Source: an uncultured Spirochaetales bacterium | GTDB lineage: Bacteria > Spirochaetota > Spirochaetia > Sphaerochaetales > Sphaerochaetaceae | Direction: 5' to 3' | Length of the DNA stretch: 47,185 nt | NCBI GenBank assembly: GCA_945947045.1 | Contig: CAMEXG010000001.1 | Location: forward strand, 1 to 47,185 | Shown here: positions 18,131 to 41,842 of the stretch, piece after piece | Layout of the letters: the number at the start of each line of letters is the position of its first letter | How positions within the stretch are numbered: the stretch's first letter is position 1 | Position numbers and translations under genes: made by a program | Notes under the pieces: generated by a model | What the model was told of the DNA's origin: nothing | The model's input: only the letters and a program-made list of their open reading frames with translations | Databases searched by the model: none

Positions 18131-18134
18131 TTCT

Positions 18135-20090: not shown

Positions 20091-20102
20091 TATATCTTCT
20101 CC

Positions 20103-21931: not shown

Positions 21932-21998
21932 TAGTACTCCTCCTTTTTTGTTTCCTTGCATAGATTGCCCTGCATATAGCAGGACAATCTAGTTTTTA

Positions 21999-23582: not shown

Positions 23583-23623
23583 AGTATCTCCTTTTTTTCT
23601 CAGGATTTTTTTGATCCCGAGAT

Positions 23624-23642
23624 TAATTAAACAATTTAATTA
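23624..23642. promoter_or_regulatory. 19-bp dyad TAATTAAA-CAA-TTTAATTA, a candidate operator
   Basis: Perfect 8-bp inverted arms with a 3-bp spacer. Starts 8 nt downstream of the predicted -10. 16/19 identical to 31500-31518. Confidence 0.45.
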
Positions 23643-23649
23643 TGTCTAA

Positions 23650-23677
23650 ATAATAACAGAGGTTTTCAATAACGCAA
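23650..23677 (-). promoter_or_regulatory. sigma70-like promoter of the SBP/ABC/sulfatase operon
   Basis: Minus strand: TTGCGT (23677-23672), 16 nt, TGt-TATTAT (hexamer 23655-23650). Same hexamers as the promoter at 16587-16615. Confidence 0.5.
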
Positions 23678-23752
23678 GGATTTTTTTATATTTTTTATAA
23701 AAATTATTTTTAAAAATAGATTCTTTATCTGCAATTAATTATATTTTTTGCA

Positions 23753-25381
23753 TTAATTCTGTTTTTCCCTTGCTCTTCTTACCATTTGGCCAAGCATCAT
23801 GCCACCCAATCCCTCTTCGTATCGTCTGAAGATTTCTTTTTTTACATCTTCATCCAAACCTCTTGTCATAGCCTCCACCTGGGCTCTTTTTATCCTATTG
23901 TCGACTTTCCTAGGTACAATATCACAAGTGGACTGATACCAATCCAACATATCAAGTTTCATCTTCATGATTTGGTCTTTGTAGAGAGGATTATCTATTT
24001 CATTCTTCTCCTCTTTTATATCTTTCTCCAAATCATAGAATTCATCTTTATTGTTAGCCCTCTTTATATACTTATACCTATGGTCTCTGATCATTGTACC
24101 CTTTATATGGGCTTCACCGTTGGTCTGGGAAATCTGCTTGGGCCAATAATCACTTTCTTCAGGAATACTTCCGCCTTTTCCACAGACCCCATGGTACTCG
24201 TCAGCCTGCCATTCATACTCCATTCTTCCACCTTCAGAGAAGACATATTTCCTATTCTCGATCTTCCTATCTTCAACAATAGGTCTGAGAGATATTCCGA
24301 ATTGATCATGATCAGGCTCTACGCCGACATAATCCATGACTGTCCTATAGAAATCCACTAGTTCTACTAGGCTATCGGAGATACCTGGATCCACTTTCTC
24401 ACCCTTTGGAGGTTTGATGAGCAAAGGCACTCTTACAAGACAGTCTTCGAATGTATTTTGGGATTTCTCAGGAAGAGAATAATCTCCACAGAAATCTCCA
24501 TGGTCAGATAGAACGACTATGAGAGTGTCATCATAGACACCTTTTTCCTTAAGACCGTCGCATAGTCTCTTAAACTGTGCATCGATTTTCATGCACATTC
24601 CAAGATACACAGCCCTCAGCTCGTCCCAGTCCTTTTCCTCCATCTGGTCGATTCCCATATGGGATCTCAGTTCTTCCTGCATTAAAGGCTTACCTTCACC
24701 CTTTGATGCCCTCTTTGGCAGTTTTTTTCTATCTATGGCTGAGAAATATGGCTTCTCAACTCCATAAGGGCAGTGAGGATAGAAAAGGCCAAGGAAAGCG
24801 ACCACAGGTTTTCCTCCATGGTCCTCCCCCATCATCTCTATGCATCTATCTACGTCGCTGTCATCGGAAGTATAATTAATACCTTCATTATTGACTGTCA
24901 GCTCTCCCAGATAGTGGGAATAGAAGAATTTATCGCCTTTTTTACCTCTTATATTTGATATAACAGGTTTATTATGATCAGTAGCCATTACTCTAGGATC
25001 TGTCTTCCCTGAGTGGATTTCATCAGCTTGTGATTCATACAACCCTGGAATCTGCCCCGCAACAAGATCGTTACGGTCATTCATCCAAACATAGTATCCT
25101 GCATTCTTTAATTCAGTGAACAGATTCGACTCATCCTCATGAAGAAGATGCTGCATAGTTCTATGTCCTTTGACATGAGGATACAAACCAGTAAAAAAAG
25201 AACAGCGAGATGGAACGCATACAGGGTTCTGGCAGTATGCATTTGAAAATGACACAGCCTCTTTCGATGCAAACTCATCAAGATTAGGAGTGATTGCAGC
25301 TGGATTTGCTCCCATATGATAAAGCGCATCCCACCTCATCTCATCTGGGTTAAATATTACAACATTCGGTCTTTTTTCCAT
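23753..25381 (-). CDS. Cys-type sulfatase, no signal peptide
   Basis: Signature PVCVPSRCSFFTG. I place the start at Met9 of the track ORF (MEKRPNVVIF) because GGAG is 5 nt upstream of it and it begins 2 nt after the GH3 stop. Confidence 0.85.
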   Translation of the reverse strand: MEKRPNVVIFNPDEMRWDALYHMGANPAAITPNLDEFASKEAVSFSNAYCQNPVCVPSRCSFFTGLYPHVKGHRTMQHLLHEDESNLFTELKNAGYYVWMNDRNDLVAGQIPGLYESQADEIHSGKTDPRVMATDHNKPVISNIRGKKGDKFFYSHYLGELTVNNEGINYTSDDSDVDRCIEMMGEDHGGKPVVAFLGLFYPHCPYGVEKPYFSAIDRKKLPKRASKGEGKPLMQEELRSHMGIDQMEEKDWDELRAVYLGMCMKIDAQFKRLCDGLKEKGVYDDTLIVVLSDHGDFCGDYSLPEKSQNTFEDCLVRVPLLIKPPKGEKVDPGISDSLVELVDFYRTVMDYVGVEPDHDQFGISLRPIVEDRKIENRKYVFSEGGRMEYEWQADEYHGVCGKGGSIPEESDYWPKQISQTNGEAHIKGTMIRDHRYKYIKRANNKDEFYDLEKDIKEEKNEIDNPLYKDQIMKMKLDMLDWYQSTCDIVPRKVDNRIKRAQVEAMTRGLDEDVKKEIFRRYEEGLGGMMLGQMVRRAREKQN

Positions 25382-25383
25382 TT

Positions 25384-27801
25384 TTACTCCACGCTTACAG
25401 GACATGTATATACACGGTTATCTTTTACACACTTCTTTTCACCGATTATCTTTACCTCTCCAACTACACTATATGTTCCGGAAGACTGACCTACCATGAT
25501 ATTAAGAGTTCCAGGTTCAACTGCAAACTCCATGTTTTCATTATAGTAACCAAGCTGTCTCATTGAGAGATGGAAGGTTACTTTTTTAGTTTCACCCTTC
25601 TCCAATGTTATTCGCTTAAAGCCCTTAAGTTCCTGAACCGGTCTTGTAACGCACACGTTCTTTACTCTTGTATAAAGCTGTACAACTTCGTCTCCTTTAA
25701 CATTTCCTGTATTCTTCACTTCTACAGTAATGTCTACATCTCCATCAGCTTCAACTTCTTTTCTACTTAAAACCAAGTTGGATATGTCGAAAGTAGTGTA
25801 TGAGAGACCATATCCGAATGGATAAAGAGGCGAATCATCCGAGTCTACATAACCTCCCTTTAAAAGTCCTACAATTGGTTCTCTTACATAACCTGAACCC
25901 GAACGATGATTATAGAAAATAGGAATCTGTCCCTCATTTCTAGGAATTGAGAATGTCATCTTTCCTCCAGGGTTTACACTTCCATCCAATACATCTGCCA
26001 CTACTTTTCCTGCATATTGCCCCGGCATATATGCTTCAATAATTGCAGACGCATGCTCAGAAGCATAAGGAGTAGAGAATATCTGAGGTCCATACATTAT
26101 TACTACTACAGGCTTATTTGTAGCAATAAGGCTTTCAAGTAGTTCTTCCTGAACACCTGGAAGCGTTATTTTTGTCCTATCTATTCCCTCTCCTCCTGTT
26201 ACATTTACCCAACCGCAGTTTCCTCCGCAGGCAAATACGACAACATCATTTTCTTCCGCAGTTTTTATGGCAGAAGCGAAATGAGACTTGTCATCTCCCG
26301 TGATTTCGCAACCCTTTTCATAGGAGACGGAGAATCTTTCTGATAGGACTTCTTTCAAGCTTCTGGCATCAAGTCCTCTAAGGACACCGTCCATGTCACC
26401 AAGTTTTTTCAGTTCCTCTTCTGTATAGATGGCCATCATCTTGGCAAAAGGATTGTTGTCATTCTTCTTGTTATTGTCGGCAAGATCAGCCATACCTCCA
26501 ATGCCGACGTTCTCACCTCTGCTACCTGCCTCCATCATTTCAATATATGCAGGATATGTATATCCAGACACCGGATATCTAATGGAATCTGCATGAGGAC
26601 CAATGAGGGCTACCTTGACACCTTTCTTAAGAGGAAGAACTCCATCGTTTTTCAACAAAACGAGAGAATCTGCTGCGATTTTTTCTGAGAGATCATCTTT
26701 TTCCTTTGTTCTGAAGGTATCTTTTATACTACTTTCATCACAATAAGGGTTCTCAAATAGGCCGCACTTAAATTTTACATACAATACTCTTCTTACTGAT
26801 TCATTTATGCACTCTTCTGTGATAAATCCACTCTTAACATACTCTGGGAGTTGTCTGAAAGCTGCACCAACAGGAATCTCAGTATCAGTTCCTGCTTTTT
26901 TTGCAATTGCTCCGGCTTCTTTGTAACTAGATCCGATTTTATATACATTATATGTTCTGAGGACAGCAGCTCCATCGGAAGTGACGACTCCTTTAAAGCC
27001 CATCTCTTCTCTCAATAGCTTTCCTATGATTTCAGGGTTGTCAATTACTGGAAGGCCATCAATCTCACCATAGTTACACATTACAGCATCCAGATCTTCT
27101 TCCTTCATGGCTGTTTCAAAGGGAAGAGCGAAATCTTCATATAACTCTCTATGACCGCAACGGAAAATAGAAGTATTTAGACCACCTTGGGTGAATGCGT
27201 AACCTAAAAAGTGCTTGGCAATACAGCTGACTTTTTTACTCTGCATTCCTCCGATATATTCTTTTCCAAATTGGGATACTAAATATGGATCCTCTCCATA
27301 TGTTTCATATGTTCTACCCCATCTAGGATCTCTTGCCACATCGATTACAGGGCTCATAGCAGATGAGATTCCTACACTTCTTGATTCTTCGCCAATATAT
27401 TCAGCCATTTCTCTAGCTAATTCCGGTTCCCAAGTAGAACCTAGATTTATCTGGGAGGGATAAAGGGAGCCACCTTTTCCCGGATAACCACAGAGGTTTT
27501 CACTTTGTAAAGCAACAGGGATGCCTAGTCTTGTCTCTTCTACAAAATATCGCTGGACTTCATTTGCTATTTTTGCAATGTAATGTGGATCTGTAATTCC
27601 TGCTGTAGAGAACTGAGTGAATCTTCCGTGTCCGTTAGGAAACTGTTTCTTAAGTTCTTCTTTACTTACTTCACCATTGACTATGACGGTTGGAACAAGG
27701 TCTCCACAAAGCTGGGCCACCTTCTCCTCCAGTGTCATTTTTGAGAGCAAATCCTCTACTCTTTCCTTAATAGGCAAAGATGCATCCTTGTATTTGTCCA
27801 T
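25384..27801 (-). CDS. glycoside hydrolase family 3 (BglX-type beta-glucosidase/xylosidase-like), cytoplasmic
   Basis: 805 aa. LTLEEKVAQL start, KHFLGY motif, GFKGVVTSDG nucleophile region, C-terminal FnIII-like domain. No signal peptide. Confidence 0.88.
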   Translation of the reverse strand: MDKYKDASLPIKERVEDLLSKMTLEEKVAQLCGDLVPTVIVNGEVSKEELKKQFPNGHGRFTQFSTAGITDPHYIAKIANEVQRYFVEETRLGIPVALQSENLCGYPGKGGSLYPSQINLGSTWEPELAREMAEYIGEESRSVGISSAMSPVIDVARDPRWGRTYETYGEDPYLVSQFGKEYIGGMQSKKVSCIAKHFLGYAFTQGGLNTSIFRCGHRELYEDFALPFETAMKEEDLDAVMCNYGEIDGLPVIDNPEIIGKLLREEMGFKGVVTSDGAAVLRTYNVYKIGSSYKEAGAIAKKAGTDTEIPVGAAFRQLPEYVKSGFITEECINESVRRVLYVKFKCGLFENPYCDESSIKDTFRTKEKDDLSEKIAADSLVLLKNDGVLPLKKGVKVALIGPHADSIRYPVSGYTYPAYIEMMEAGSRGENVGIGGMADLADNNKKNDNNPFAKMMAIYTEEELKKLGDMDGVLRGLDARSLKEVLSERFSVSYEKGCEITGDDKSHFASAIKTAEENDVVVFACGGNCGWVNVTGGEGIDRTKITLPGVQEELLESLIATNKPVVVIMYGPQIFSTPYASEHASAIIEAYMPGQYAGKVVADVLDGSVNPGGKMTFSIPRNEGQIPIFYNHRSGSGYVREPIVGLLKGGYVDSDDSPLYPFGYGLSYTTFDISNLVLSRKEVEADGDVDITVEVKNTGNVKGDEVVQLYTRVKNVCVTRPVQELKGFKRITLEKGETKKVTFHLSMRQLGYYNENMEFAVEPGTLNIMVGQSSGTYSVVGEVKIIGEKKCVKDNRVYTCPVSVE

Positions 27802-27843
27802 ACATATCTCCTTTTTACTATCCTCTGTTTTTTTTCTGTTTGT

Positions 27844-29109
27844 TTATTTTCCTAAAAGCTTAAACATGTCCTTCTTATAGTCTTCAACACCATTCTGATC
27901 AAAAGGATTTACTCCTGTGATATTGCATGAAACATAGCAGGCCATCTGGAAGAAATAGAAAAGAGCGCCATAAGTCTCTTCATCGAAACGAGGAATCTCC
28001 AAAACAAGGCATGGGAATCTTCTTGAGTGAGCGGCAAGAGTTGCGTTAAATGCAGCTTTATTGATTTCCCAAAAATCTTTTCCATCAAGATATTTGAAGC
28101 CATCTTCCAATTCATCACTTGGAAGCGGACAAGTAGATTCTCTTTCCGTTACATTCAAAAACGTCTCGAAAAGCATTGGGGAACCATCCTGGACAAACTG
28201 TCCTAAAGAATGCAGATCCTCACTATATGAAGTATCCATCGGCAATAAGCCCTTATCTTCCTTTCCTTCACTTTCACCGAAAAGCTGTTTCCACCACTTT
28301 GCAAATCTAAAGAATCTGGGTTCGAAATAAGAAAGAAGTTCTACACTCTTCCCTTTTTCTTTTAGCATAGTGCGCATTGTGGCATATTCGAGGGCGACAT
28401 TTAATATTGAATGATCGCTTTTGAGTCTACTCTCCATATCTTTTGCACCCTTAACCATAGCTTTAATATCAAAACCTGCAACAGCAAGAGGGAAAAGACA
28501 GATGGGAGAGAGCGCCGTATATCTACCGCCAATATTCGAAGGGAAAGGAAGAAGTGTATAACCCTCCTTTTCAGCCATATTCCAGGAAGGCGTATTCTCT
28601 GTAAAAGTAACGATTACTCTTGAAGAGTAACTATCCCCATATCTTTTATCCAAGAAGTTCCTGATAACTCTGAAAGCAATACCAGGCTCCAATGTCTCAA
28701 AGTTTTTGGCGATACAATCCACATAGACGCTTTTCTTGTTCTCCAAAGATTTTAATACTTCGTTCATTGAATATGGGCTTATAGTATTTCCTGCCCATAT
28801 TATTTCAACATCATTCTTCCGTCCCAATGCCTCGTATACAGCTCTGGCTGCCTGGTTTGAACCGCCAATACCTATGACAACCAAGGCATCTGCATCTTTC
28901 CTTACTCTTAAGGCAGTCTCTTCATACTTTTCCAGCCATTCTTCTCCAGCCCAAAGAGATACATTGTGCCAACCGAGAGTATCTTTATACTTCTCCTCTC
29001 CTTTCAGAGCTCTATCTAGGGAAGGAAGGTTTCTTTCTAGTCTTGCTTTATATTCCTCTTTCCCGATTAATCCCGAATTATCTACATACTTAAAGTTTAT
29101 ATCCGTCAT
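27844..29109 (-). CDS. glucose-6-phosphate isomerase family protein (short Firmicute-type PGI), with an atypical phosphate loop
   Basis: GIGGS, IGGRYTALSP, WWKQLFGESEGK, DLHSLGQ and NPFDQNGVEDYKK signatures are present. The canonical SKSGTT/SKTFTT loop reads AKNFET. Confidence 0.8.
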   Translation of the reverse strand: MTDINFKYVDNSGLIGKEEYKARLERNLPSLDRALKGEEKYKDTLGWHNVSLWAGEEWLEKYEETALRVRKDADALVVIGIGGSNQAARAVYEALGRKNDVEIIWAGNTISPYSMNEVLKSLENKKSVYVDCIAKNFETLEPGIAFRVIRNFLDKRYGDSYSSRVIVTFTENTPSWNMAEKEGYTLLPFPSNIGGRYTALSPICLFPLAVAGFDIKAMVKGAKDMESRLKSDHSILNVALEYATMRTMLKEKGKSVELLSYFEPRFFRFAKWWKQLFGESEGKEDKGLLPMDTSYSEDLHSLGQFVQDGSPMLFETFLNVTERESTCPLPSDELEDGFKYLDGKDFWEINKAAFNATLAAHSRRFPCLVLEIPRFDEETYGALFYFFQMACYVSCNITGVNPFDQNGVEDYKKDMFKLLGK

Positions 29110-29993
29110 AGAGACGCTCCTTTTACTTGATAGTTTTCTTTGATTATTTCTATAACCTTAGCAACATACTTCTCATTTTCCGGAACATTGGAGTTTAAGA
29201 ATGCATGCCAAAGATCTTTATCGATAAAATAAGAATGTAGAATTCCATCCCTATTTAGTATTTCATCCAGCTTATCGCTATGATTTTTCAATATCTCTTT
29301 TTCTGATGCAAATAGCGCTACAAATGGAAACCCAAAATAGTCGCCCAGCACAGGATATGCATATGGATCATCACAATCCGCTGTGATGTAATACTCATAT
29401 TTCTCACCCGTTCTATAGTCCAGAATAGCATCATTATCTATTTGGTATTGCGTGGGCTCTATCCCTTCTCCAATATATGGAGAGGAAAGAATAAGGGAGG
29501 ACGGAAGATAAATACCATGGTCCCTGCACCATAGAGACAACGACAAAGCTATGGTTCCACCTGCGCTCGTTCCAATGATACTCGACTCTCCCGGATCGAC
29601 TCCCCATTCCAATAGTTTTCTCCAGACTTTTACACAATCCATAAAGGCTGCAGGATATGTATCCTCAGGTGCAAGTGAATAGTTGATTCCATAAATAGTC
29701 ATTCCTAGATTTCTTGCTATCTGAGTGCAAAGCCAATATCCATTCGAAGCATATCCGTTTTTAAAACCTCCACCATGAATATAAACAAGGGCGGAAGACG
29801 ATCTTGAATTGGGAAAAGTAATTTTTTCTGTTTCAACACCTTTTATATTAAGTAGAGTCTTCTCAGCATCTTCCGGAAGCTTAGAGGCTCTTTTTTTCTG
29901 ATTCTCCCTCATCTCTTCCAGAGTAGACTTACTCCTCAATTTCTTTATTTCCCTAAGTCTCTCTTCATATTTCTGTCCTATTTCTCCAAGCAT
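29106..29993 (-). CDS. alpha/beta-hydrolase esterase (HSL/deacetylase-like)
   Basis: Oxyanion motif HGGGF, nucleophile elbow GTSAGG, distal DLWHAF. 4-nt overlap with the PGI-like start. Confidence 0.75.
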   Translation of the reverse strand: MLGEIGQKYEERLREIKKLRSKSTLEEMRENQKKRASKLPEDAEKTLLNIKGVETEKITFPNSRSSSALVYIHGGGFKNGYASNGYWLCTQIARNLGMTIYGINYSLAPEDTYPAAFMDCVKVWRKLLEWGVDPGESSIIGTSAGGTIALSLSLWCRDHGIYLPSSLILSSPYIGEGIEPTQYQIDNDAILDYRTGEKYEYYITADCDDPYAYPVLGDYFGFPFVALFASEKEILKNHSDKLDEILNRDGILHSYFIDKDLWHAFLNSNVPENEKYVAKVIEIIKENYQVKGASL

Positions 29994-30003
29994 AAGACCA
30001 ACC

Positions 30004-31476
30004 TCAGACGCCTCTTTTGTTTCTACCGCTCTTCCATGGGTTTCTCACGTTTCTGTAGTTCATGGACTCATTACCCACTGTCTTCATCTTTTCAATAAAT
30101 GCAGCTTTGGCTTCTTCGATACGTTTGTCATAAGCCTCGGTATGATATTTCTCCAGGAGAGGATCCTTATATTTTTCCATATAAGAGTTTAGAATGCTTC
30201 TCATCTTCGCTATCTCTTCCTGATACTCAGGATCATCAATAAGATTACACAAAGCATCCGGATCCTTCTCAAAATCATAGAATTCTTCAGGGACTCTATA
30301 CTGGAAGAAGTCCACTCTTTCTTTTATTTCTTTATTCTCTTCCCCCGCCTTCACCATGGCATTAAAGGTAAGACCAGTCTGAGCCTCATTCTTAAAAACT
30401 TTCTCTCCATCGGACCATGCATTGAAGATATATCCATATCTCTTGTTTTGTACGCATCTCATAGGGTAAGAATTAAAAGCAGAAGTAAGGTTAAACTGTG
30501 TATATACATAACCATCTCTACTATCATCTTTCTTTCCTTCAAGAATACTAAGGTAACTCTTTCCGTCACACTTCATCTTATCTTCCAATCCACAAGCTTG
30601 GAGAACTGTAGGAGTAAAATCTACTCCACTTATTAGATCTGTATTATTTCTTGTTCCTGCAGCGATATGTCCAGGCCACTTGGCGATAAAAGGAGTCTTT
30701 GTAGAGTTCAAGTAACAGTTTGCCTTGGCAAATGGGAATGCCATACCATTATCAGACATGAAAATAACCAGTGTTTCGTCTTCGAGACCTGCTTCTTTCA
30801 ATGAATCCAATACTGCGCCCATAGACTGGTCTCCCCTATGGACTGAAGAATAATACTGTGCAAGTTCTTTTCTTACGTCTGGTAAATCAGGAAGGAATCC
30901 AGGCACCCATGCTTCTTCACTCTTATAGAATCTATCGGCATAGATATGGTAGCCATAGAATTTTTTAACTTCATCGTCGCTTCCTGCGAAAGGTCTATGT
31001 GGATCATGGGTATTAGCCATCAAGAAAAAAGGCTTTCCTGATTCTTTTGCCATTTCGAAGAACTCTTTGGACCTGGACCTATATAAATCAGGGCTTCTAC
31101 CGTAATTTGATTCAGGCTCCATCATTCTTGAGGCATAATCCCACGCAAATTTTTCCATTGGTACGGCATGCTTCAGTTTTCCGATAATTCCATTGAAGTA
31201 TCCATTTTCCTTAAGGGTCTCCGTGAGAGTAGGAATCTCGGAAGAAATGGGCATAAAACCAGGGGCACCGTTTTTATGAGGATATAATCCTGTCAGGAGA
31301 CACTCCCTCGAAGGCTGGCATACAGCGATAGTAACGTGGGCATTGTCAAAACATACACCTTCAGATGCAAGCTTGTCCAAGTTTGGTGTTATGTCATCTA
31401 CAGGGCATCCGAAACAACCGATAGAGTTGTAATTCAAATCATCCGCCATTAATAGAAGGATATTGGGTCTTGTCAT
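30004..31476 (-). CDS. Cys-type sulfatase, no signal peptide
   Basis: NILLLMADDL metal-site N-terminus, signature AVCQPSRECLLTG. AGGAG RBS at 31483-31487. Confidence 0.9.
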   Translation of the reverse strand: MTRPNILLLMADDLNYNSIGCFGCPVDDITPNLDKLASEGVCFDNAHVTIAVCQPSRECLLTGLYPHKNGAPGFMPISSEIPTLTETLKENGYFNGIIGKLKHAVPMEKFAWDYASRMMEPESNYGRSPDLYRSRSKEFFEMAKESGKPFFLMANTHDPHRPFAGSDDEVKKFYGYHIYADRFYKSEEAWVPGFLPDLPDVRKELAQYYSSVHRGDQSMGAVLDSLKEAGLEDETLVIFMSDNGMAFPFAKANCYLNSTKTPFIAKWPGHIAAGTRNNTDLISGVDFTPTVLQACGLEDKMKCDGKSYLSILEGKKDDSRDGYVYTQFNLTSAFNSYPMRCVQNKRYGYIFNAWSDGEKVFKNEAQTGLTFNAMVKAGEENKEIKERVDFFQYRVPEEFYDFEKDPDALCNLIDDPEYQEEIAKMRSILNSYMEKYKDPLLEKYHTEAYDKRIEEAKAAFIEKMKTVGNESMNYRNVRNPWKSGRNKRGV

Positions 31477-33449: not shown

Positions 33450-34130
33450 TTACCTTCTTATAGGCGGAAATAAGTGTTCTATCCCCAGCTCCTTCACCAT
33501 CTTAACGACTTCCGTCGATCTCGATACTCCGAACTTCTGAAGCAGAGTTCTTATCTGGCTCTTGACCGTAGCAGGCTCAACGAACCTTCTCTCGGCTATT
33601 TCCCTTACCTTCAAACCTTCCATAAAACATGAGATCAGCTCTTTTTCTGCTGGAGTCAGATTGCCTAGGTTCTGTATGAAATACAAGAGGTTTTTCTCAC
33701 TCTTACGTAGTCTTTTATATTCATCCATCAAGACTTTCTGTATTTCACTGTCAATCTGTGCATTGCCTTCCTTTGCCATTCTGACTTTCTTTCTCAGTGT
33801 CTCTTCGTCGCAGCCTTTGACCACATAATCCAGGGCACCGTTTGACATGGCTTTTACAATGGTCTCATCACTATCATGGCTAGTGAGATAAAGAATGACA
33901 GCATCATTATCGCTGGAAAGAATCGCATCTGCAGCCCTTATCCCATCCTCGTTATCAGCCATCTCAATGTCCATTAAGACTACATCGTACTTTTCTTTCT
34001 CATATTCCATCTCAGCTTCAATTCCAGTGGAACACTCTTTTATTACTAGAATATCTCCCTCTTTTTCCAAAGCTTCCTTTATATATGTCCTGATTACTTC
34101 ACTGTCTTCAGCCAACATTACTCTAATCAC
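33450..34130 (-). CDS. response regulator, NarL/LuxR family
   Basis: REC domain (DVVLMDIEM phospho-Asp region) plus a C-terminal LuxR HTH (LTPAEKELISCF...VKSQIRTLLQKFGV). Confidence 0.9.
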   Translation of the reverse strand: MIRVMLAEDSEVIRTYIKEALEKEGDILVIKECSTGIEAEMEYEKEKYDVVLMDIEMADNEDGIRAADAILSSDNDAVILYLTSHDSDETIVKAMSNGALDYVVKGCDEETLRKKVRMAKEGNAQIDSEIQKVLMDEYKRLRKSEKNLLYFIQNLGNLTPAEKELISCFMEGLKVREIAERRFVEPATVKSQIRTLLQKFGVSRSTEVVKMVKELGIEHLFPPIRR

Positions 34131-35602
34131 TTTCTTCCCTCCCCTGCCAAAGGCAACATCACGATAAAGGAAGTTCCCCCATCCCTACGTGGTGTAAATG
34201 AAATAGACCCCAAGTGCCTTTTTATTACAAGCCTGGTGAAATACATACCGATTCCCCAGTTAGTAGAACTATTCTTGGAAGAATGGAAAGGCTCCCAAAG
34301 ATGCTTTTTTAATTTCCTATCTATACCCTTTCCTCTATCACTAAAAATAATCTCGACCCACATTCGTCCATATTTGACCTGTATCTCTATGGGATCATGC
34401 CGTTTATTATCAAGCGTTGCTTCTATTCCGTTTTGTATAATGTTATATAAAGCCTCTGAAAGAAAGGTTGTATCTGCAAGAATGAGTTTTGTAGTTTCTT
34501 CGGTATCGACATTAATCTGGTAATTGCAGAAATTCTCTCTTACTCTCTTCTTACACTCTTCTATTACATCCATCATTGAAGCTGGACGAAGTCTTATTGA
34601 GTTTACTTTGAGAGATTTATTTAGCTTCTCCAACCTTGTCACAAGAGAAGCGTTGATCTGTGATAGTCTCTCGATATCACCATCCTCAGGGTAATTTTTC
34701 TTTACTTTATCTAGGAGGATACGTGTAGCCAACAAGTCATTCTTTGTTCCATGAACAAACATGGATACTCCTCTAGCTGTGGAACTGACCTCTCTTCTTA
34801 TTTTTACTTCCGCCACCTCCTCTCCAAATGTAATTGAGAAATACCTGATAAGAGAGGCCATGGACAGGATACCAGATAGCAAAGCTCCTATCATGACTAC
34901 ATAGTTGAAGCCTGATGAGAATCCTCTATGTAGATACCATAGACCAAGCATCCACATATAATCGTTTCTATAGAAAAGATAAACTTGGGCAGGATCCTGA
35001 GGAAAGAAAAGACCATAGATCATTACGAGAGAAAGAATGATCATGAATTTCATAATAAATCTCAATCTGAAGAAAGAGAGCTTGGTACCCCATAGTTCGA
35101 TGATCATCATGAGAATAGACATGGCTAAATAAAGAATAATCCATATTTTTGTAACAGTGACTACAATCCCCATTGCAGTGGGATTTGAAGAGAATGTCTC
35201 AAAGAACTGGGGGATATAAATAAGTATACCCATCAATGGGAGGATAAATAACAACAATCCTTTTTTTATTAAATTACTCTTATTCAGCTTTCCAGCCATA
35301 TTCAAAGATGAGAGCAAAAGAAAATAAGGAGAAAGATATCTTCCTATAGCCATCATGAATCCAAGTCTATTCATTGTGAAGACTTGATACATAAGCTTTT
35401 GTCTAACCCGATTGTTTCCATAGAGGACAAAGGTTGTAAAGTCTGTTATTCCTCCTTTTTTGGCTATATATACAGAAATTGTATAAAGGAAAAAAGTTAT
35501 TGATCCCACTGCCAAGAAAAGAAGGGCGCTTCTTAAATCACGTCTCAACAAAAGAAGAGCAAAAGACATAAAAAGTGTTATCAATAACAATACTGGGAGC
35601 AT
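34127..35602 (-). CDS. polytopic membrane sensor histidine kinase
   Basis: About 260-aa N-terminal domain with about 7 TM segments, H-box-like FVHGTKNDL, HATPase N/G boxes (NIIQNGIEA, DRGKGI, GIGM). ATGA overlap with the regulator. The exact start is uncertain (no SD). Confidence 0.8.
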   Translation of the reverse strand: MLPVLLLITLFMSFALLLLRRDLRSALLFLAVGSITFFLYTISVYIAKKGGITDFTTFVLYGNNRVRQKLMYQVFTMNRLGFMMAIGRYLSPYFLLLSSLNMAGKLNKSNLIKKGLLLFILPLMGILIYIPQFFETFSSNPTAMGIVVTVTKIWIILYLAMSILMMIIELWGTKLSFFRLRFIMKFMIILSLVMIYGLFFPQDPAQVYLFYRNDYMWMLGLWYLHRGFSSGFNYVVMIGALLSGILSMASLIRYFSITFGEEVAEVKIRREVSSTARGVSMFVHGTKNDLLATRILLDKVKKNYPEDGDIERLSQINASLVTRLEKLNKSLKVNSIRLRPASMMDVIEECKKRVRENFCNYQINVDTEETTKLILADTTFLSEALYNIIQNGIEATLDNKRHDPIEIQVKYGRMWVEIIFSDRGKGIDRKLKKHLWEPFHSSKNSSTNWGIGMYFTRLVIKRHLGSISFTPRRDGGTSFIVMLPLAGEGRK

Positions 35603-35723: not shown

Positions 35724-36725
35724 TTAGTTGTGTGCAGCTTCAAGCATGATGTCAAAGAGGACGTAGTTCTCAACTGGAGTTGTAGGATCAACTGCATCAC
35801 CGAATGCAAGCTTCTGAACTTCATAGAGAGCCTTGATAGAACCATCTTTGATTCCGTTGATTGTATCTGCTTCTGTATACCACTTTGCACCATGGACTGT
35901 CTGATACTGAATCTCAACGTCACCTGCAACCTGCTTAGCAACCCATTCAGCAACCTGTCTCATGTTCTCTTCCTTTGCTCTGAAGTCTTCACCCTTATAG
36001 AGTGCTCTTGTGAACTTGACAAGTGTATCGTGGTTAGCTTCAGCCCACTTTGGCATGACGATCCAAGAAGCGATGTTGACTGTCTCGTCAGAGAATGTTT
36101 CGTTTCTAGCGATTACAACAGCATCGGAACCGATCTGAGAGCACATTGTTTCTGTTGATGGTGACCATGTAGCACATGCATCGAGAGAACCAGATGTCAT
36201 AGCAGATGTGAGAGAAGAAGCATCCATTTCGTAAGCTGTGATGTCATTCATAGTGAGTCCAGCTTTCTTAAGACCGAGCATGAGGATGTTCTCTGAAGAT
36301 GTTCCTGAAGAATAACCGACTTTCTTTCCTCTGAGGTCAGCGAGAGATTCTACACCATGAGACTTGAGACCGACGATAGCGTCACCGTTTCCAAGGTGAG
36401 AGAATGCGAAGATGGAAGCACGACCATTGATACAAAGCTTATGAGCGCCATGTCCGATGTATCCGATATCGATAGAGCCGGATTCCATAGCAGCGATGAT
36501 AGTAGGACCGTCTGCGAATTCAACAAGGTTAACCTTGAGGCCTTCTTCTTCGAAAGCGCCTGTCTCAATTGCAGCCATTACGGAGCAGAGAGATGCATAG
36601 TTTGGCATATATGCAACGTTGAGAGTCTTGAGAGAAGAAGTTGTTGCCTTTTCTTCTGCTCCCTGAGCGAAAATGCCTGTAAGAGCGATGACTGCTACCA
36701 AAAGAATAGCGATTGCCTTTTTCAT
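35724..36725 (-). CDS. NitT/TauT-family (NMT1/SsuA-like) ABC substrate-binding protein
   Basis: Signal peptide MKKAIAILLVAVIALTGIFAQG. 333 aa with an SsuA/ThiY-like pattern. Confidence 0.8.
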   Translation of the reverse strand: MKKAIAILLVAVIALTGIFAQGAEEKATTSSLKTLNVAYMPNYASLCSVMAAIETGAFEEEGLKVNLVEFADGPTIIAAMESGSIDIGYIGHGAHKLCINGRASIFAFSHLGNGDAIVGLKSHGVESLADLRGKKVGYSSGTSSENILMLGLKKAGLTMNDITAYEMDASSLTSAMTSGSLDACATWSPSTETMCSQIGSDAVVIARNETFSDETVNIASWIVMPKWAEANHDTLVKFTRALYKGEDFRAKEENMRQVAEWVAKQVAGDVEIQYQTVHGAKWYTEADTINGIKDGSIKALYEVQKLAFGDAVDPTTPVENYVLFDIMLEAAHN

Positions 36726-36765: not shown

Positions 36766-37557
36766 TTATTTTCTTACCTCAAGGTATTCATGATATACCT
36801 GAGACCAAATCTGGTTCTTAAGCTCCAAGAATCTTGGGCTCATCTTTGTCTCCTGATCACGTGGATAAGGAATATCTACATCGATGATATCCTTGATTCT
36901 TCCTGGTCTAGCGGACATTATGACGACTCTTTGACCAAGGATGAGGGCTTCGTCGACATCGTGGGTGATGAAGAAGCAAGTCTTTCTTTCCTTTTCCCAT
37001 GTCTCCAACAACTCCTGCTGAAGCTGAGTTCTTGTCTGAGCATCCAAAGCTCCGAATGGCTCGTCCATCAATAAGACTTCAGGATTTGCAGCATAAGCAC
37101 GAGCGATTGCGACTCTCTGCTTCATACCGCCACTGAGTTCCTTTGGATAGTGGTCGCAGAACTTCTCAAGATCAACCATCTTGATGTACTTCATTGCGAT
37201 ATCTTCTGCTTCCTGCCCCTTTATTCCTTTCATCTGAAGTGGGAAGAGGACATTCTTCTTTACTGTGAGCCAGGGAAAGAGTGCATACTGCTGGAATACG
37301 ACACCTCTATCTGGACCTGTTCCATGGACTTCCTTTCCATTACAGATGATCTTTCCGCTTGTAGGCTCCAAAAGACCAGCCATAATATTGAGGATTGTAG
37401 ACTTTCCGCAACCAGATGGACCGACGACAGTAATAAACTCGTTGTCCATAATATCCAGGTTTACACCGTTGAGAGCTACTACCTCACCAGTTCTTCCCTG
37501 ATATGTCTTCTTAACGTTCTCAATGTGAACTTTTATATTTCTCTCTTCTCCTGCCAT
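36766..37557 (-). CDS. NitT/TauT-family ABC ATP-binding protein
   Basis: Walker A GPSGCGKST, LSGGMKQRV, Walker B LLMDEPFGALD. 263 aa, SsuB/TauB-like size. Confidence 0.9.
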   Translation of the reverse strand: MAGEERNIKVHIENVKKTYQGRTGEVVALNGVNLDIMDNEFITVVGPSGCGKSTILNIMAGLLEPTSGKIICNGKEVHGTGPDRGVVFQQYALFPWLTVKKNVLFPLQMKGIKGQEAEDIAMKYIKMVDLEKFCDHYPKELSGGMKQRVAIARAYAANPEVLLMDEPFGALDAQTRTQLQQELLETWEKERKTCFFITHDVDEALILGQRVVIMSARPGRIKDIIDVDIPYPRDQETKMSPRFLELKNQIWSQVYHEYLEVRK

Positions 37558-38324
37558 CCTGTCAACTTCCTTTCAAGTAATTGTATAAGCTTCTCAACTG
37601 TGATTCCGATGATACCGATGATGATGATATATAGAAGCATCGGAGCTGTTTCGAAGTTGTTGTTAAGTGATCTGATTCTCATTCCCAATCCAGCGAATGC
37701 ACCTGTAGATTCTGCGGCGATAAGTGTCGTGAGGGCACAAGAAGCACCGAGACGTACAGCTGTAAGAATGAATGGAAGAGATGCTGGAGCAAGAACGCGA
37801 AGGAAGATATCCTTATCTTTAGCTCCAAGGACTCTTGCTGCCTTAATAAGCGTCTCGTCAATGTTTACGATTCCCTGATACATTGTGATACACATAATGA
37901 GACAGGTTGCGATTGTAATGACGATGATCTGTGGTTTTCTTCCTACTCCTGCTGCGATGACAATGAGCGGAACATAAGCAAGAGGTGGTATGTTTCTGAT
38001 GAACTGAATCCATGGCTGGATAATTCTTCTTACAGGATTATACCAAGCCATAAGAATAGCCAATGGAAGTGCAATGACAAAACCAAGGGCATATCCAGCA
38101 CTTACAGAGATAAGAGAAGAAGAAATATCCTTCCAAAGAACGCCTCTCTGAATCATGACACCAATCTGCTTAAAGACGACGAAGATATTGGGGAATGAAC
38201 GTGCAGTAGCCGGCAACACTGATAAAAGTGTCCAAAGTGCTAGAGCACAAAGTAAAGAAATACCGAGCCAAATCCAATTTGTAAGTTTCTCGTTGGTTTT
38301 GCCTCCCTTTAGCTTTGCAGCCAT
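37533..38324 (-). CDS. NitT/TauT-family ABC permease
   Basis: 263 aa, 6 TM segments, EAA loop (LIKAARVLGAKDKDIFLRV). Confidence 0.85.
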   Translation of the reverse strand: MAAKLKGGKTNEKLTNWIWLGISLLCALALWTLLSVLPATARSFPNIFVVFKQIGVMIQRGVLWKDISSSLISVSAGYALGFVIALPLAILMAWYNPVRRIIQPWIQFIRNIPPLAYVPLIVIAAGVGRKPQIIVITIATCLIMCITMYQGIVNIDETLIKAARVLGAKDKDIFLRVLAPASLPFILTAVRLGASCALTTLIAAESTGAFAGLGMRIRSLNNNFETAPMLLYIIIIGIIGITVEKLIQLLERKLTGWQEKREI

Positions 38325-38412: not shown

Positions 38413-39906
38413 CTAATTGAAATAGACGGGACTAAGGAATGCCACGCTTCCGTTCTTCTGGAATATTTCCATATGGTAGAAAGCATTACCCTTAATATCG
38501 TCTTCTACTTCCCCTTCTATTCTGTATAAACTTTCTCCAATAGCTTGATGAACTTTGAAGGAAGGAGAGTTTGTAATTCCAACAGGGTAACAGAACGAGT
38601 TGTTTAGTAGATCTCTTATTTTCAATCTCACTTCCCTATCATTAACTTTGATAGACAGAAGAGTATCAAGAGAACCGTCGATCTCCATTACGACCATGGA
38701 TGTAGAAGGTGTGGTAGGATTAATATTCTTTGCGGTCTGTACTCTACCTTCCAAATGGTCATCACTAATAATACTTGCCCTGTTATCGATGACATTGCAG
38801 TCCTCTGGTACTTCTACTCCTTCTTGTGGAGCCAATACACTCTTACCTCTGAAACACTTTTCAAGAGAAGAAAACTTCCCGTTTTCAAGCTTTACATCAA
38901 AGTCCCAGGTAAGGAGATCTTTCTTTCCACCCCAGCCGAATTCAAGTCTTACTTTGTATTTTCCTTTTTCGTTGACTACTCTGAAACTCTCACCATTTAT
39001 TACAGCTATAGGCTCCAGATTTCTGTAGATTACAGCTTTGTCCAACAAATATGACAGATCCATTTTATAGTGGACGGTATGATGGCTTATAGAAGATGAG
39101 ACTTTATCACCCATAATAAAACCATCTACATCAAAGAATGCTTTGATCTTGTCTCCACTGAGTGCATACGTATGACGTTTTTTAATAGCGTCGATGATGC
39201 TGGACCTATCGTTATTATCAGCAAGGACACATAAACACCCGTCACCATAGGAACCAGGATAACCTGCGTGATGGTCCGTAGAACCTACAAAGCCAAATTG
39301 TCTCCCCTTTTCCAGTCCCCTATATACAGTGTTCCTACTGTCTCTGCCTCCCATATTGTGGTAATAAGGGAAAGGATGAGAATCGCTCATGGAGCATCCA
39401 TGCTTACTTATCACCTCGACCACAGGGAAAAGAGAATCATCATATTCATCCCAGTTTATTCCCCTGTATTCAGGAGCATAGGCAATGTGATGGGGAATGA
39501 TCACTGTATCTTTATACCCTTTCGTCTCTTCATAGAATTCTCTAGGAGTCTTTGCATCTGTCAGCAACGGAATTGAAGTATCCCCAGAGACAATATGATG
39601 GTCTCCAAAGTGATGAGAGTGCATCTCATAACCTATAAACGTAGTGAACTCGCCCTCTTTATTGTACTTCTCGAAGATAGCTTTGTTTCCTTCATAGTTA
39701 CCTTTCAGCTTGGCAAAACCTTTCTTGTGGAATGCAACCAGGAACTCTGTATCCGGGGTTACAGGTGGGATATCTGGCCAGAAAGCGTGTCCTGTCACCG
39801 CAACAAAGTCCAAGTGGCTCCTAGCGTTCACAAGTGCATTCTCCAAGCTTCCATAGCCATATGAAATACCACAGTGATCATGAATATCTCCAAATAGATA
39901 TTTCAT
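38413..39906 (-). CDS. PHP-domain / DUF3604-like metal-dependent hydrolase with a C-terminal beta-rich domain
   Basis: His-rich PHP-type motifs GDIHDHCGISYG, VAVTGHAF, YEMHSHHFGDHH, IIPHHIAY, GSTDHHAG. No signal peptide. The ATGA start overlaps the nagA stop. Confidence 0.6.
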   Translation of the reverse strand: MKYLFGDIHDHCGISYGYGSLENALVNARSHLDFVAVTGHAFWPDIPPVTPDTEFLVAFHKKGFAKLKGNYEGNKAIFEKYNKEGEFTTFIGYEMHSHHFGDHHIVSGDTSIPLLTDAKTPREFYEETKGYKDTVIIPHHIAYAPEYRGINWDEYDDSLFPVVEVISKHGCSMSDSHPFPYYHNMGGRDSRNTVYRGLEKGRQFGFVGSTDHHAGYPGSYGDGCLCVLADNNDRSSIIDAIKKRHTYALSGDKIKAFFDVDGFIMGDKVSSSISHHTVHYKMDLSYLLDKAVIYRNLEPIAVINGESFRVVNEKGKYKVRLEFGWGGKKDLLTWDFDVKLENGKFSSLEKCFRGKSVLAPQEGVEVPEDCNVIDNRASIISDDHLEGRVQTAKNINPTTPSTSMVVMEIDGSLDTLLSIKVNDREVRLKIRDLLNNSFCYPVGITNSPSFKVHQAIGESLYRIEGEVEDDIKGNAFYHMEIFQKNGSVAFLSPVYFN

Positions 39907-41027
39907 TTATCCTCCTTTTCAAAGACTACTTCTCCTCCTACAATAGTCTTCATCACTTCATTTTCTTTCGAAAGAACTACCATATCAGCCCTCTTCCCCA
40001 CTTCAAGAGCCCCTCTATCAGAGAGTCCCATCATATTTGCCTGGTTAAGAGAAAGAATTCTCCATAAAGTTTCAGGACCCAGTCCTGTAAACTTAATTAG
40101 GTTTCTCAATGCTTTATCGAGAGTAAGGGTAGAGCCAGCCCTGACACCATTTCTAAGCTTTGCGTCTCCGTCCTTTACCACAACGTCATTTACACCCAGC
40201 TTATACTCTCCGTCAGGAAGACCTGCAGCCATAATAGAGTCAGTAATGGCCACAACTTTATCCAGACCCTTTGTTTTGAGAACCAATCTTACTGTTCCAG
40301 GATGAAGATGAAAGCCGTCTGAAATAATCTCAGTATAAACTTGGTCGCTTTCAAGGGATGCCCCGGATATAGCTGGTCGATGCATATGAAATAGCTTCAT
40401 TGCATTAAAAAGGTGTGTAGCAGATGTCACTCCATTCTCTATGGCTTCCAATGCTGTTTCATACTCTGCACTGGAGTGTCCCATGGAGACTACAACACCC
40501 TTTCGTCTGAGAGAAGAAATAAAAGGCATGGCACCCTCTCTCTCTGGAGCGATTGTGATATATGAAATATGACCACGGGAAGCTGTAAAATATCTATCAA
40601 ACAACTCTGGATCGGGATCCACTATCAGCTCTGAAGGCATGGAACCTTTATATTCATCTGATAGGAAAGGCCCTTCCAGATGAATTCCTACTAGCTGAGC
40701 TCCCTTCAACTTCTTTTCCCTTGCCTCTCCCAATACTTTAAGGCACTTTACCATGCTCTCCTCTGTATCGGTGACAAGAGAGAGCTGAACAGATGTAACA
40801 CCATGAGAAGCATAGAAGGAGGAGAGTCTCTCCACATCTTCCATACTCTCAATATGGTTTACATCCATTCCTCCACCGCCGTGGGTATGGACATCAATAA
40901 AGCCAGGAAGAATAAGAGGATAGTTTCCGTCTTCAATCTCCTTAATGCTCTTTATTTTTTCTCCCTCTGTCTCAATTTCTACACTGATAAGTCTTGAATT
41001 AAAGGGAATCTTTCCAAAAAGTGTCAT
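39903..41027 (-). CDS. nagA: N-acetylglucosamine-6-phosphate deacetylase
   Basis: 374 aa amidohydrolase: GFIDVHTHGGGG, HLEGPF, THLFNAM. Confidence 0.9.
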   Translation of the reverse strand: MTLFGKIPFNSRLISVEIETEGEKIKSIKEIEDGNYPLILPGFIDVHTHGGGGMDVNHIESMEDVERLSSFYASHGVTSVQLSLVTDTEESMVKCLKVLGEAREKKLKGAQLVGIHLEGPFLSDEYKGSMPSELIVDPDPELFDRYFTASRGHISYITIAPEREGAMPFISSLRRKGVVVSMGHSSAEYETALEAIENGVTSATHLFNAMKLFHMHRPAISGASLESDQVYTEIISDGFHLHPGTVRLVLKTKGLDKVVAITDSIMAAGLPDGEYKLGVNDVVVKDGDAKLRNGVRAGSTLTLDKALRNLIKFTGLGPETLWRILSLNQANMMGLSDRGALEVGKRADMVVLSKENEVMKTIVGGEVVFEKEDK

Positions 41028-41842
41028 TAAAAAGCCCTCTCTGAAGCGATATTATTTGTAAGAATCAATGCATCAGGATGGTTCTGCAACAAGGTTACAG
41101 GGAAGTGTCCGCTAGGCTCGTCAAAGATAGCCTGTCTGACTACAGCCCTATGCCAAGGTCTGAATACACCAAGAACAACCTTTCTTGCTTCTATTATTTC
41201 TTTGATTCCGATTGTCACTGCATATACAGGCATAGCATCTATGGCGCCATTAAGGTCACCGATGGCATTGGCACATCTTGTTTCTCTCGAGATAGCAAGG
41301 ACTCTCGTATCACGGGTAGCAAACTCTTCTGCAGATACTTCTTCAGCCTCATTAAAAGCAAGATGCCCGTTTATTCCGATTCCTCCGAAGCAGATATCTA
41401 CGCCGCCGAGTTCCTCGATCTTTTTTCCTACACTCTCTGGATTCTTTGGATCTGGAAAGAATCTCTGAGACTCAGGTACGTTAAGTTCCTCTGGAATCTG
41501 GGAGTAGACTTCTCTCTCCATAAAACCACGGAAAGAGAGAGGAGAAGATGAGTCGATGTATTCTTTATCATCTGTCAAATACTCGTCCATGTTGAAGAAC
41601 CAACAATTAGCGAGAGAAAGATTCCTCTCTTTTACAAGCCTTACAAATATCGGGTACTGTCCCACTGGTCCTACTGGGCATATAAATACAGTTTTCTTTC
41701 CTTTTTTGTTATTCTCTTCAATTGTATCCACCATGATGTGGGCAATCTCAGAAAAGACTTCACCGCTATCTCCCAGACATTTGACAGGGATTCTTCCCTC
41801 TCCCAGTCTTTCTTTAGGATATGAATAATATTTTTTGTCCAT
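41027..41842 (-). CDS. nagB: glucosamine-6-phosphate deaminase/isomerase family protein
   Basis: 271 aa. The NagB/6-PGL fold pattern includes FFNMDEY, GGIGINGHLAFNE. TAATG junction with nagA. Confidence 0.82.
   Translation of the reverse strand: MDKKYYSYPKERLGEGRIPVKCLGDSGEVFSEIAHIMVDTIEENNKKGKKTVFICPVGPVGQYPIFVRLVKERNLSLANCWFFNMDEYLTDDKEYIDSSSPLSFRGFMEREVYSQIPEELNVPESQRFFPDPKNPESVGKKIEELGGVDICFGGIGINGHLAFNEAEEVSAEEFATRDTRVLAISRETRCANAIGDLNGAIDAMPVYAVTIGIKEIIEARKVVLGVFRPWHRAVVRQAIFDEPSGHFPVTLLQNHPDALILTNNIASERAF

Follow-up and report, generated by a model that had tools for sequence, protein, structure and literature searches.

A PHP-type gene translationally coupled to nagA

We analysed a stretch of 47,185 nucleotides from an uncultured Spirochaetales bacterium of the family Sphaerochaetaceae (GenBank assembly GCA_945947045.1, contig CAMEXG010000001.1, positions 1 to 47,185 of the forward strand), referred to here as the window, with a focus on a minus-strand gene whose product is termed P0001. 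An earlier sequence-only reading of the window had described P0001 as an uncharacterised PHP/DUF3604-like metallohydrolase, made together with the products of nagB and nagA, which could remove or exchange an anionic ester or amide (phosphate, sulfate or N-sulfate) on an amino sugar. The core of this operon consists of three genes, given here in the order of transcription.

41027..41842, minus strand: NagB-like paralogue (TIGR00502 105.8 bits, cutoff 236.9; catalytic Asp, His and Glu kept)
39903..41027, minus strand: nagA, N-acetylglucosamine-6-phosphate deacetylase family (TIGR00221 304.9 bits, cutoff 225.65)
38413..39906, minus strand: PHP gene (P0001), 497 aa, recognised by its open reading frame (ORF) and motifs, a fold model and homology to the family of the Bacteroides protein BT4655

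The P0001 gene is real, and every motif that had been quoted for its 497-aa ORF was located in the translation, namely, GDIHDH (residues 6-11), TGH (38-40), YEMHSHH (93-99), PHH (138-140) and STDHH (209-213). Its start codon, with an AAGGAGG site ahead, overlaps the nagA stop (ATGA, 39903-39906), and nagA and the NagB-like gene share one base (TAATG, 41025-41029), in agreement with the translational coupling proposed before; a scan for promoters and terminators returned background level only. In a family alignment of 34 members, which are 44-77% identical, residues D7, H9, H11, C12, H40, E94, H96, H139, H140, H169, H183, D211, H212 and H213 are invariant, as are several Arg and Lys, and the His, Asp and Glu residues of this set are candidate metal ligands. 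Since the HxH motif begins already at residue 9, P0001 has no signal peptide, as had been noticed, and is predicted to be cytoplasmic.

An AlphaFold2 (AF2) model of P0001, run on an alignment (pLDDT 91.4, pTM 0.92), places residues 1-253 in a PHP barrel and residues ~251-497 in Ig/FN3-like beta-sandwiches (Z 9-11). The beta-rich C-terminal domain of the earlier description is therefore present in the model, with a length of ~245 aa rather than ~200. Foldseek matched the model with TM0559 (2anu) at an E value of 1e-7, and VIA aligned the two with Z 18.8 and a root-mean-square deviation of 3.5 over 215 residues, other PHP structures giving Z of 17.7 (3e38), 16.0 (7rty) and 14.1 (5zb8). Both the barrel and the ligand pattern, an N-terminal HxH motif plus conserved His, Glu and Asp-x-His, are those of the PHP superfamily, and the assignment to it follows from this fold and these motifs rather than from the Pfam PHP model, which gave no match to P0001 at E<=0.01.

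Other profiles and searches were less informative. Pfam DUF3604 (PF12228) matched at 37.2 bits (gathering score 20.4) over an alignment of just 34 residues, from residues 223-256 of P0001 to profile positions 379-412 of 591, and this profile found no match in the B. theta control genome; NCBIfam CehA/McbA (NF038032) reached 45.6 bits over residues 69-301, below its cutoff of 80. DUF3604 is treated as uncharacterised in the available literature that mentions it. No chain was matched in sequence searches of the PDB, either with P0001 or with the family profile.

P0001 is a member of the BT4655 family

BT4655 belongs to a polysaccharide utilization locus (PUL) for heparin and heparan sulfate (Hep/HS) in Bacteroides thetaiotaomicron. 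According to reviews, the Δbt4655 mutant grows ~50% worse on heparin and leaves N-sulfoglucosamine (GlcNS) in the medium (PMC10154612), and its poorer growth on heparin and HS, together with the GlcNS left over, implicates BT4655 in the de-N-sulfation of GlcNS (PMC10154612, PMC9067506). The protein has been labelled a 'novel sulfatase family', absent from SulfAtlas (PMC10154612), and is not predicted to be formylglycine-dependent (PMC11980591).

For comparison, two Bacteroides genomes were found by 16S primer match, and the family profile A1 detected exactly one gene in each of the two, at full length and with E values of 1e-144 and 1e-142. In Bacteroides sp. f07 this gene stands in the order SusC, SusD, GH88, PL12, S1 sulfatase, A1 match, ROK kinase, MFS, DUF4962/heparinase, which is the published order from BT4660 to BT4652 (PMC9067506), and its neighbours are near-identical to the solved BT4656 (5g2v, 1174 bits) and to the B. 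theta heparinase III (5jmd). Given this gene order and these near-identical neighbours, the f07 locus is the Hep/HS PUL, with the A1 match in the slot of BT4655. P0001 and the BT4655-slot gene are 34% identical by BLASTP over 502 columns, at full length (E 2e-100), and each is the sole match of the other in the other's genome. The f07 orthologue has an N-terminus of the form MDRRSFLK...LGAC, that is, a Tat signal and a lipobox.

Judged by this homology, P0001 is a member of the BT4655-type family, namely, a cytoplasmic variant that has a new set of operon partners. The family is thus not an unknown one, P0001 being of the BT4655 kind. The view of the sequence-only reading that no PHP enzyme is known to take part in amino-sugar catabolism no longer holds, with a full-length homologue in the slot of BT4655, which knockout data implicate in de-N-sulfation of GlcNS.

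The operon pairs a canonical NagA with a divergent NagB paralogue

On profile score and homology, the operon nagA is canonical: its product matches the NagA of B. subtilis (2vhl) with an E value of 1.6e-66 and 228 bits. A second nagA of the same genome is found on contig C13. The gene previously taken for nagB, in contrast, falls far short of its family cutoff. Its product has a substrate-anion loop from which two residues are missing (CPVG--PVG), and the positions of R172 and K208 of E. coli NagB, which we take to be phosphate ligands, are occupied by Ile and Val; Arg and Lys/Arg stand at these two positions in every solved NagB shown and in the canonical NagB of the same genome, which is encoded on contig C174 (275 bits). 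A literature search on NagB phosphate-site residues returned nothing usable. We therefore consider this gene a divergent paralogue predicted to lack the canonical phosphate site, and not the canonical nagB, and the altered anion site suggests that its substrate carries no 6-phosphate.

The NagB-like subfamily with the signature CPVG--PVGQYP also adjoins the PHP gene at seven other family loci (L003, L004, L015, L017, L020, L025 and L052; loci are cited by their L numbers), in spirochaetes, Bacillota OH_CDB metagenome-assembled genomes (MAGs) and one Oscillospiraceae MAG.

A sulfonate-type importer and a two-component system follow the PHP gene

Downstream of P0001, the minus strand carries five further genes, which encode an ATP-binding cassette (ABC) transporter and a two-component system.

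37533..38324, minus strand: ABC permease of the NitT/TauT family (BPD_transp_1; TauC-, SsuC- and SaoP-like matches all below cutoffs)
36766..37557, minus strand: ATPase subunit of this ABC transporter (ABC_tran; matches to ATPases of the taurine and nitrate types)
35724..36725, minus strand: secreted NMT1/SsuA-type solute-binding protein (NMT1, SsuA_fam subfamily), signal peptide MKKAIAILLVAVIALTGIFAQG
34127..35602, minus strand: polytopic membrane histidine kinase (HATPase_c at residues 377-486; N-terminal half hydrophobic)
33450..34130, minus strand: LuxR/GerE-type response regulator, partner of the kinase (Response_reg and GerE; conserved with the kinase)

Among solved proteins, the binding protein comes closest to 3e4r, 2x26, 6ssy and 3uif, which bind sulfonates and taurine (SsuA, TauA), and this bears out the adjacent TauT-type importer recognised earlier. 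Permease genes come after the PHP gene in L005, L017 and L004 as well, and the histidine kinase is kept downstream of the transporter in L017, L004, L015, L022 and L024-26.

Family loci are rich in sulfatases, GH88 enzymes and heparinase-type lyases

The family of P0001 is large. Word-indexed homologues number 563, an exhaustive search at E<=1e-3 yielded 2446 clusters at 50% identity, and a pattern scan confirmed, among the matches listed, at least 436 family loci in species-representative genomes. We examined the neighbourhoods of cytoplasmic relatives in a sample of 81 non-redundant loci with 10-kb flanks, using seed proteins and unbiased clustering, with the following results. An S1 sulfatase occurs within 10 kb in 44 of the 81 loci, GH88 in 25, heparinase II/III-type lyases (six clusters) in 22, and any one of these three in 51-53; where at least 5 kb is available on both sides, the proportion is 38 of 54. 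The immediate same-strand upstream gene is a sulfatase in nine loci and GH88 in another nine (9/81 each). No PL8-type lyase cluster appears among the recurrent neighbours of the 81 loci. NagB or a NagB-like protein is encoded within 10 kb in 11 loci, and NagA in 4.

Five genomes with lyase or GH88 plus PHP loci contain 1-19 S1 sulfatases each in 2-7 Mb, and so chance would, by a rough estimate, place an S1 sulfatase within 20 kb at a few percent of loci at most. Genomes with such loci and no S1 sulfatase at all were also sought among these five; every one has at least one, and this line was not discriminating. The heparin locus of Lacrimispora has two S1 sulfatases, and no S1_8 SGSH-type structure was matched by either of them at E<=1e-20, so that the sulfamidase slot of this locus stays open. 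The best PDB matches of the neighbouring S1 sulfatases are merely choline-sulfatase-like and uninformative on subfamily.

Closer to P0001, the operon order nagB-like, (nagA), PHP, ABC transporter, kinase and regulator is kept in spirochaete relatives (69-76% identity), which have different upstream genes, including an anSME-like radical-SAM gene in L017; in L004 the NagB-like gene lies directly upstream of the PHP gene and NagA is not present. A Bacillota group at 50-55% identity retains the PHP gene, the ABC transporter, the kinase and regulator, sulfatases and a phosphoglucose isomerase (PGI)-like gene. Hence the nagBA association noted in the window is conserved in close spirochaete relatives and is not a family-wide feature. 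The earlier reading had named two observations that would speak against it, namely, a characterised orthologue unrelated to amino sugars, or loss of the nagBA link in all related genomes, and we encountered neither of them.

In the tree, P0001 belongs to a 14-member clade (SH-aLRT 92), and 11 of its members show the same importer context; spirochaete sequences are nested among those of Bacillota, and lyase and GH88 contexts are spread over the whole tree. P0001 found no counterpart in four genomes of its own genus, each of them 95% complete or more, and in a sample of the bacterial family the only relatives were 31-35% identical. The operon is hence accessory, and the nesting of spirochaetes among Bacillota suggests that it was probably acquired by horizontal transfer.

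Other features of these loci deserve a record. Two paralogues lie ~18 kb apart in one Clostridia MAG (L021 and L022; contig CAYOSU010000001.1, 202-242 kb): one comes after TctABC, sulfatase, LacI, DUF4432 and sulfatase genes, with a 1-nt gap, and the other is transcribed divergently from the genes of an NMT1-type ABC transporter that has a kinase and regulator beside it. Clostridium sp. AT4 likewise has two family copies (L036, L068). A DUF2264 protein of ~629 aa is encoded directly downstream of the PHP gene at six Lachnospiraceae/Clostridiaceae loci (L088: 11496-13379), and unannotated neighbours of ~600, ~770 and ~810 aa recur (clusters 25, 36 and 31, respectively); all of these may be undescribed glycan-active enzymes.

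A sulfatase island and glycolysis-like genes in the window

At lower coordinates, the window contains a sulfatase island and, at its edge, a block of glycolysis-like genes.

16667..31476, minus strand: sulfatase island, with GH3, an Opp-type ABC transporter and the PGI paralogue as further genes
16667-18130, 23753-25405 and 30004-31476, minus strand: three S1 (SGSH_C-type) sulfatases, 7-22 kb from P0001
27844-29109, minus strand: PGI paralogue (NF010697 396 bits, cutoff 443), loop CIAKNFETLE (AKNFET)

These three sulfatases are among the 4-5 S1 sulfatase (PF00884) genes of the genome. PGIs normally carry a Ser/Thr-rich phosphate loop at the position where the paralogue has AKNFET, and PGI-like genes accompany the PHP gene in L015, L017, L019, L020, L024 and L025. 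No sugar kinase or phosphotransferase system (PTS) is visible in the window, in line with the reported absence of an N-acetylglucosamine (GlcNAc) kinase or PTS, and its three ROK proteins resemble NagC/Mlc-type regulators.

Between 9041 and 16510 lie genes for a TauE/SafE-type anion exporter, a ROK regulator-like protein, aldose 1-epimerase, a LarA-family protein, a TIM-like protein, a pyrophosphate-dependent phosphofructokinase (PPi-PFK) and a class II aldolase, the glycolysis-like block that edges the island; the LarA-family protein has 497 aa, equal in length to P0001 but unrelated. The idea that the phosphofructokinase, aldolase (FBA) and PGI of the window are all exotic was weakened, since the first two pass NCBIfam subfamily cutoffs as an ordinary PPi-PFK and class II aldolase, and the loop change is confirmed for PGI only. 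Directly upstream of the operon, behind lnt, are yqeB (TIGR03309, 346 bits) and yqeC (41902-44134, minus strand), maturation genes for a selenium-dependent molybdenum hydroxylase, and no such hydroxylase is visible in the window. Their adjacency to the operon is not kept in L005 and L017, and a selenium link through yqeB/yqeC and the Sao system was dropped, given also that the matches of the ABC transporter to the selenoprotein-associated Sao system of Haft score far below cutoffs. Two ORFs have no Pfam or NCBIfam match, one of 164 aa (31625-32119, minus strand), placed between a sulfatase and a ROK regulator, and another of 303 aa (5424-6335, minus strand).

A proposed N-sulfoglucosamine sulfohydrolase and its alternatives

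Taking the BT4655 homology together with the operon and family contexts, our leading proposal, which we regard as about evenly poised between right and wrong, is that P0001 acts as a cytoplasmic, formylglycine-independent N-sulfoglucosamine sulfohydrolase, parallel to NagA, on imported sulfated glucosamine. The SsuA/TauA-like ABC transporter would import a small sulfated glucosamine derived from host glycans, such as GlcNS, its 6-sulfate GlcNS6S or N-acetylglucosamine 6-sulfate (GlcNAc6S), under the control of the adjacent membrane kinase and LuxR-type regulator. In the PHP enzyme, a metal-activated water would hydrolyse the N-sulfate (sulfamate) of GlcNS without formylglycine, NagA would take the N-acetyl group off the acetylated counterpart, and both free-amine products would pass to the NagB-like deaminase/isomerase. 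P0001 and NagA would therefore be two "N-unmasking" enzymes working side by side. The scheme builds on what is shown for the gene itself, its fold, the conserved ligands, the homology with the BT4655-slot gene, the coupling of the genes and the neighbourhood counts; we infer from these that P0001 acts as an N-sulfatase, which substrate is imported, how many metals take part and what the NagB-like protein accepts. It would account for the exclusive link of the family to heparinase-type lyases, for its frequent occurrence without NagA, for the open sulfamidase slot in loci such as that of Lacrimispora, and for the operon layout in the window. The first suggestion, that the enzyme takes an anionic group off the nitrogen or oxygen of an amino sugar, is hence supported, with N-sulfate as the option we favour.

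Several observations weigh against this proposal. To our knowledge, cleavage of an N-S bond by a PHP metal centre has no precedent; the solved PHP relatives of P0001 are phosphoesterases or proteins of unknown function, and the nearest named sequence family, CehA/McbA, acts on carbamate esters. No GH88 or heparinase-type lyase is found among the window genes, so that the source of GlcNS would be outside the cell. In 30 of the 81 loci, sulfatases, lyases and GH88 are all missing from the 10-kb flanks and GFO/IDH or other contexts are seen, and some heparin-type loci already hold 3-4 S1 sulfatases (L045, L060). The exported BT4655-type proteins fall, together with other exported forms, in a subclade other than the cytoplasmic clade, and at 34% identity the specificities of P0001 and BT4655-type proteins may differ. 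Moreover, the role of BT4655 itself is deduced from a knockout phenotype, as conveyed by reviews, and the protein is described as biochemically uncharacterised (PMC10154612). Literature searches combining PHP with sulfatase or glycosaminoglycan found nothing, and those combining N-sulfoglucosamine with NagA and NagB found nothing relevant.

The sulfatase, GH88 and lyase context would also fit a formylglycine-independent O-sulfatase, acting on the 6-O- or 3-O-sulfate of glucosamine or on a later intermediate such as fructose-6-sulfate. PHP centres classically cleave phosphate monoesters, which chemically resemble sulfate monoesters most closely, and NagB-like and PGI-like paralogues with rewritten phosphate sites would suit sugars that keep a 6-sulfate. 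However, capable S1 sulfatases are already abundant in the same loci, and the sole genetic datum for the family, the Δbt4655 phenotype, favours N-sulfate; we consider this alternative unlikely.

P0001 could also be an N-deacylase or amidase that releases the free amine from a non-phosphorylated or sulfated N-acyl amino sugar where NagA cannot act, a possibility that we regard as quite unlikely. The best named family, CehA/McbA, hydrolyses carbamate esters, and NagA occurs in merely 4 of the 81 loci, yet several have NagB or NagB-like proteins and ROK proteins, with L004 providing the example of a NagB-like gene directly upstream and no NagA. Nevertheless, a bona fide NagA is translationally coupled to P0001, which would make a second deacetylase redundant; every lyase in the family neighbourhoods is of heparinase type, a setting more in keeping with GlcNS than with a general role on GlcNAc or N-acetylgalactosamine (GalNAc); and it is GlcNS, not GlcNAc, that builds up in the BT4655 knockout.

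It appears very unlikely that P0001 catalyses some other step in an oxidoreductive route for amino sugars, such as elimination, hydrolysis or opening of the ring in a keto-sugar that the frequently flanking GFO/IDH dehydrogenases produce, the association with sulfatases and heparin then being secondary. GFO/IDH genes occur within 10 kb at 23 of the 81 loci and directly next to the PHP gene at 10 of these loci, there are recurrent xylose-isomerase-like TIM proteins (cluster 32), and the 30 loci devoid of sulfatase, GH88 and lyase would be accommodated; but the clade of P0001 itself has no GFO/IDH neighbours, and the BT4655 phenotype would be left unexplained. Least probable of all is a PHP phosphoesterase of the classical kind, either a phosphodiesterase or a phosphatase of sugar phosphates or nucleotides, with an indirect link to sulfated glycans. 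The functionally defined structural neighbours are all phosphoesterases or nucleases (EndoQ, RNase AM, histidinol phosphatase and the PHP domains of polymerases X and III), but structural identity is merely 12-19%, no PHP Pfam match exists, and the loci import unphosphorylated glycans through ABC or tripartite tricarboxylate transporter (TTT) systems, with no obvious phosphorylated substrate.

Returning to the N-sulfohydrolase proposal, it is tempting to speculate on a phosphorylation-independent route in which a 6-O-sulfate serves as the anionic handle, an extension that we rate as improbable. GlcNS6S and GlcNAc6S would enter the cell intact, the PHP sulfamidase, as a mechanistically new class of sulfatase, and NagA would free their amino groups, and the NagB paralogue with its rebuilt anion site would deaminate the product to fructose-6-sulfate. 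This would be passed on to glycolysis look-alikes of the island, namely, the PGI-like protein with its AKNFET loop, the TIM-like and the LarA-like proteins, which would likewise have lost their phosphate grips. The altered anion sites of the NagB-like protein and the PGI paralogue keep such a 6-sulfate-retaining sugar route open.

What is new here is the PHP-fold barrel with an invariant metal-ligand set that our model indicates for the BT4655-type family, as well as the large size of this family and a cytoplasmic branch without signal peptides, which is widespread among Firmicutes and spirochaetes and sits in loci of heparin or sulfated-monosaccharide type. Such a soluble form, independent of Tat export and of formylglycine maturation, offers a practical target for a first biochemistry and structure. 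Were the proposal true, P0001 would be a metal-dependent N-S hydrolase unrelated to the lysosomal SGSH, and the operon would show non-Bacteroides gut bacteria scavenging N-sulfated glucosamine from host heparan sulfate.

Comparison with known systems

The closest known system is BT4655 from the PUL BT4652-BT4663, a putative glucosamine N-sulfatase (Cartmell et al. 2017, as reviewed in PMC10154612 and PMC9067506) with which P0001 is homologous across both domains, as seen through the f07 orthologue, which keeps nearly all His, Asp and Glu residues that are invariant in the P0001 family. Both share a family context of GH88, heparinase-type lyases and S1 sulfatases, and neither is predicted to be formylglycine-dependent. 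They differ in location and partners. BT4655-type proteins have a Tat signal and a lipobox and are periplasmic, whereas P0001 has no signal and belongs to a separate cytoplasmic subclade of Firmicutes and spirochaetes; and P0001 is accompanied by NagA, a NagB paralogue and a sulfonate-type importer, whereas BT4655 is accompanied by SusC/D, lyases and a ROK kinase.

The S1_8 sulfohydrolases, such as human SGSH and Phep_2826 of Pedobacter heparinus, catalyse the same reaction that is proposed for P0001, from GlcNS to glucosamine (GlcN) and sulfate at the monosaccharide stage of heparin/HS breakdown (PMC10154612). In fold and chemistry they are unrelated to P0001, being members of the alkaline-phosphatase superfamily whose formylglycine nucleophile has to be matured by anSME or FGE, in contrast with the PHP barrel and predicted His/Asp/Glu metal site of P0001.

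Regarding structure, TM0559 (2anu), BVU_3505 (3e38), PsfC (7rty) and EndoQ (5zb8) have the N-terminal barrel and the HxH motif in common with P0001, at identities of 13-19%; 2anu and 3e38, the nearest two, come from structural genomics and have no known function, and none has the arrangement of P0001 with its C-terminal beta-sandwich tail of ~245 aa. Finally, CehA/McbA and DUF3604, the sole named sequence models that match P0001, are PHP-like metallohydrolases of the same broad clan, of which the CehA/McbA enzymes (carbaryl hydrolases) cleave the carbamate ester of a xenobiotic.

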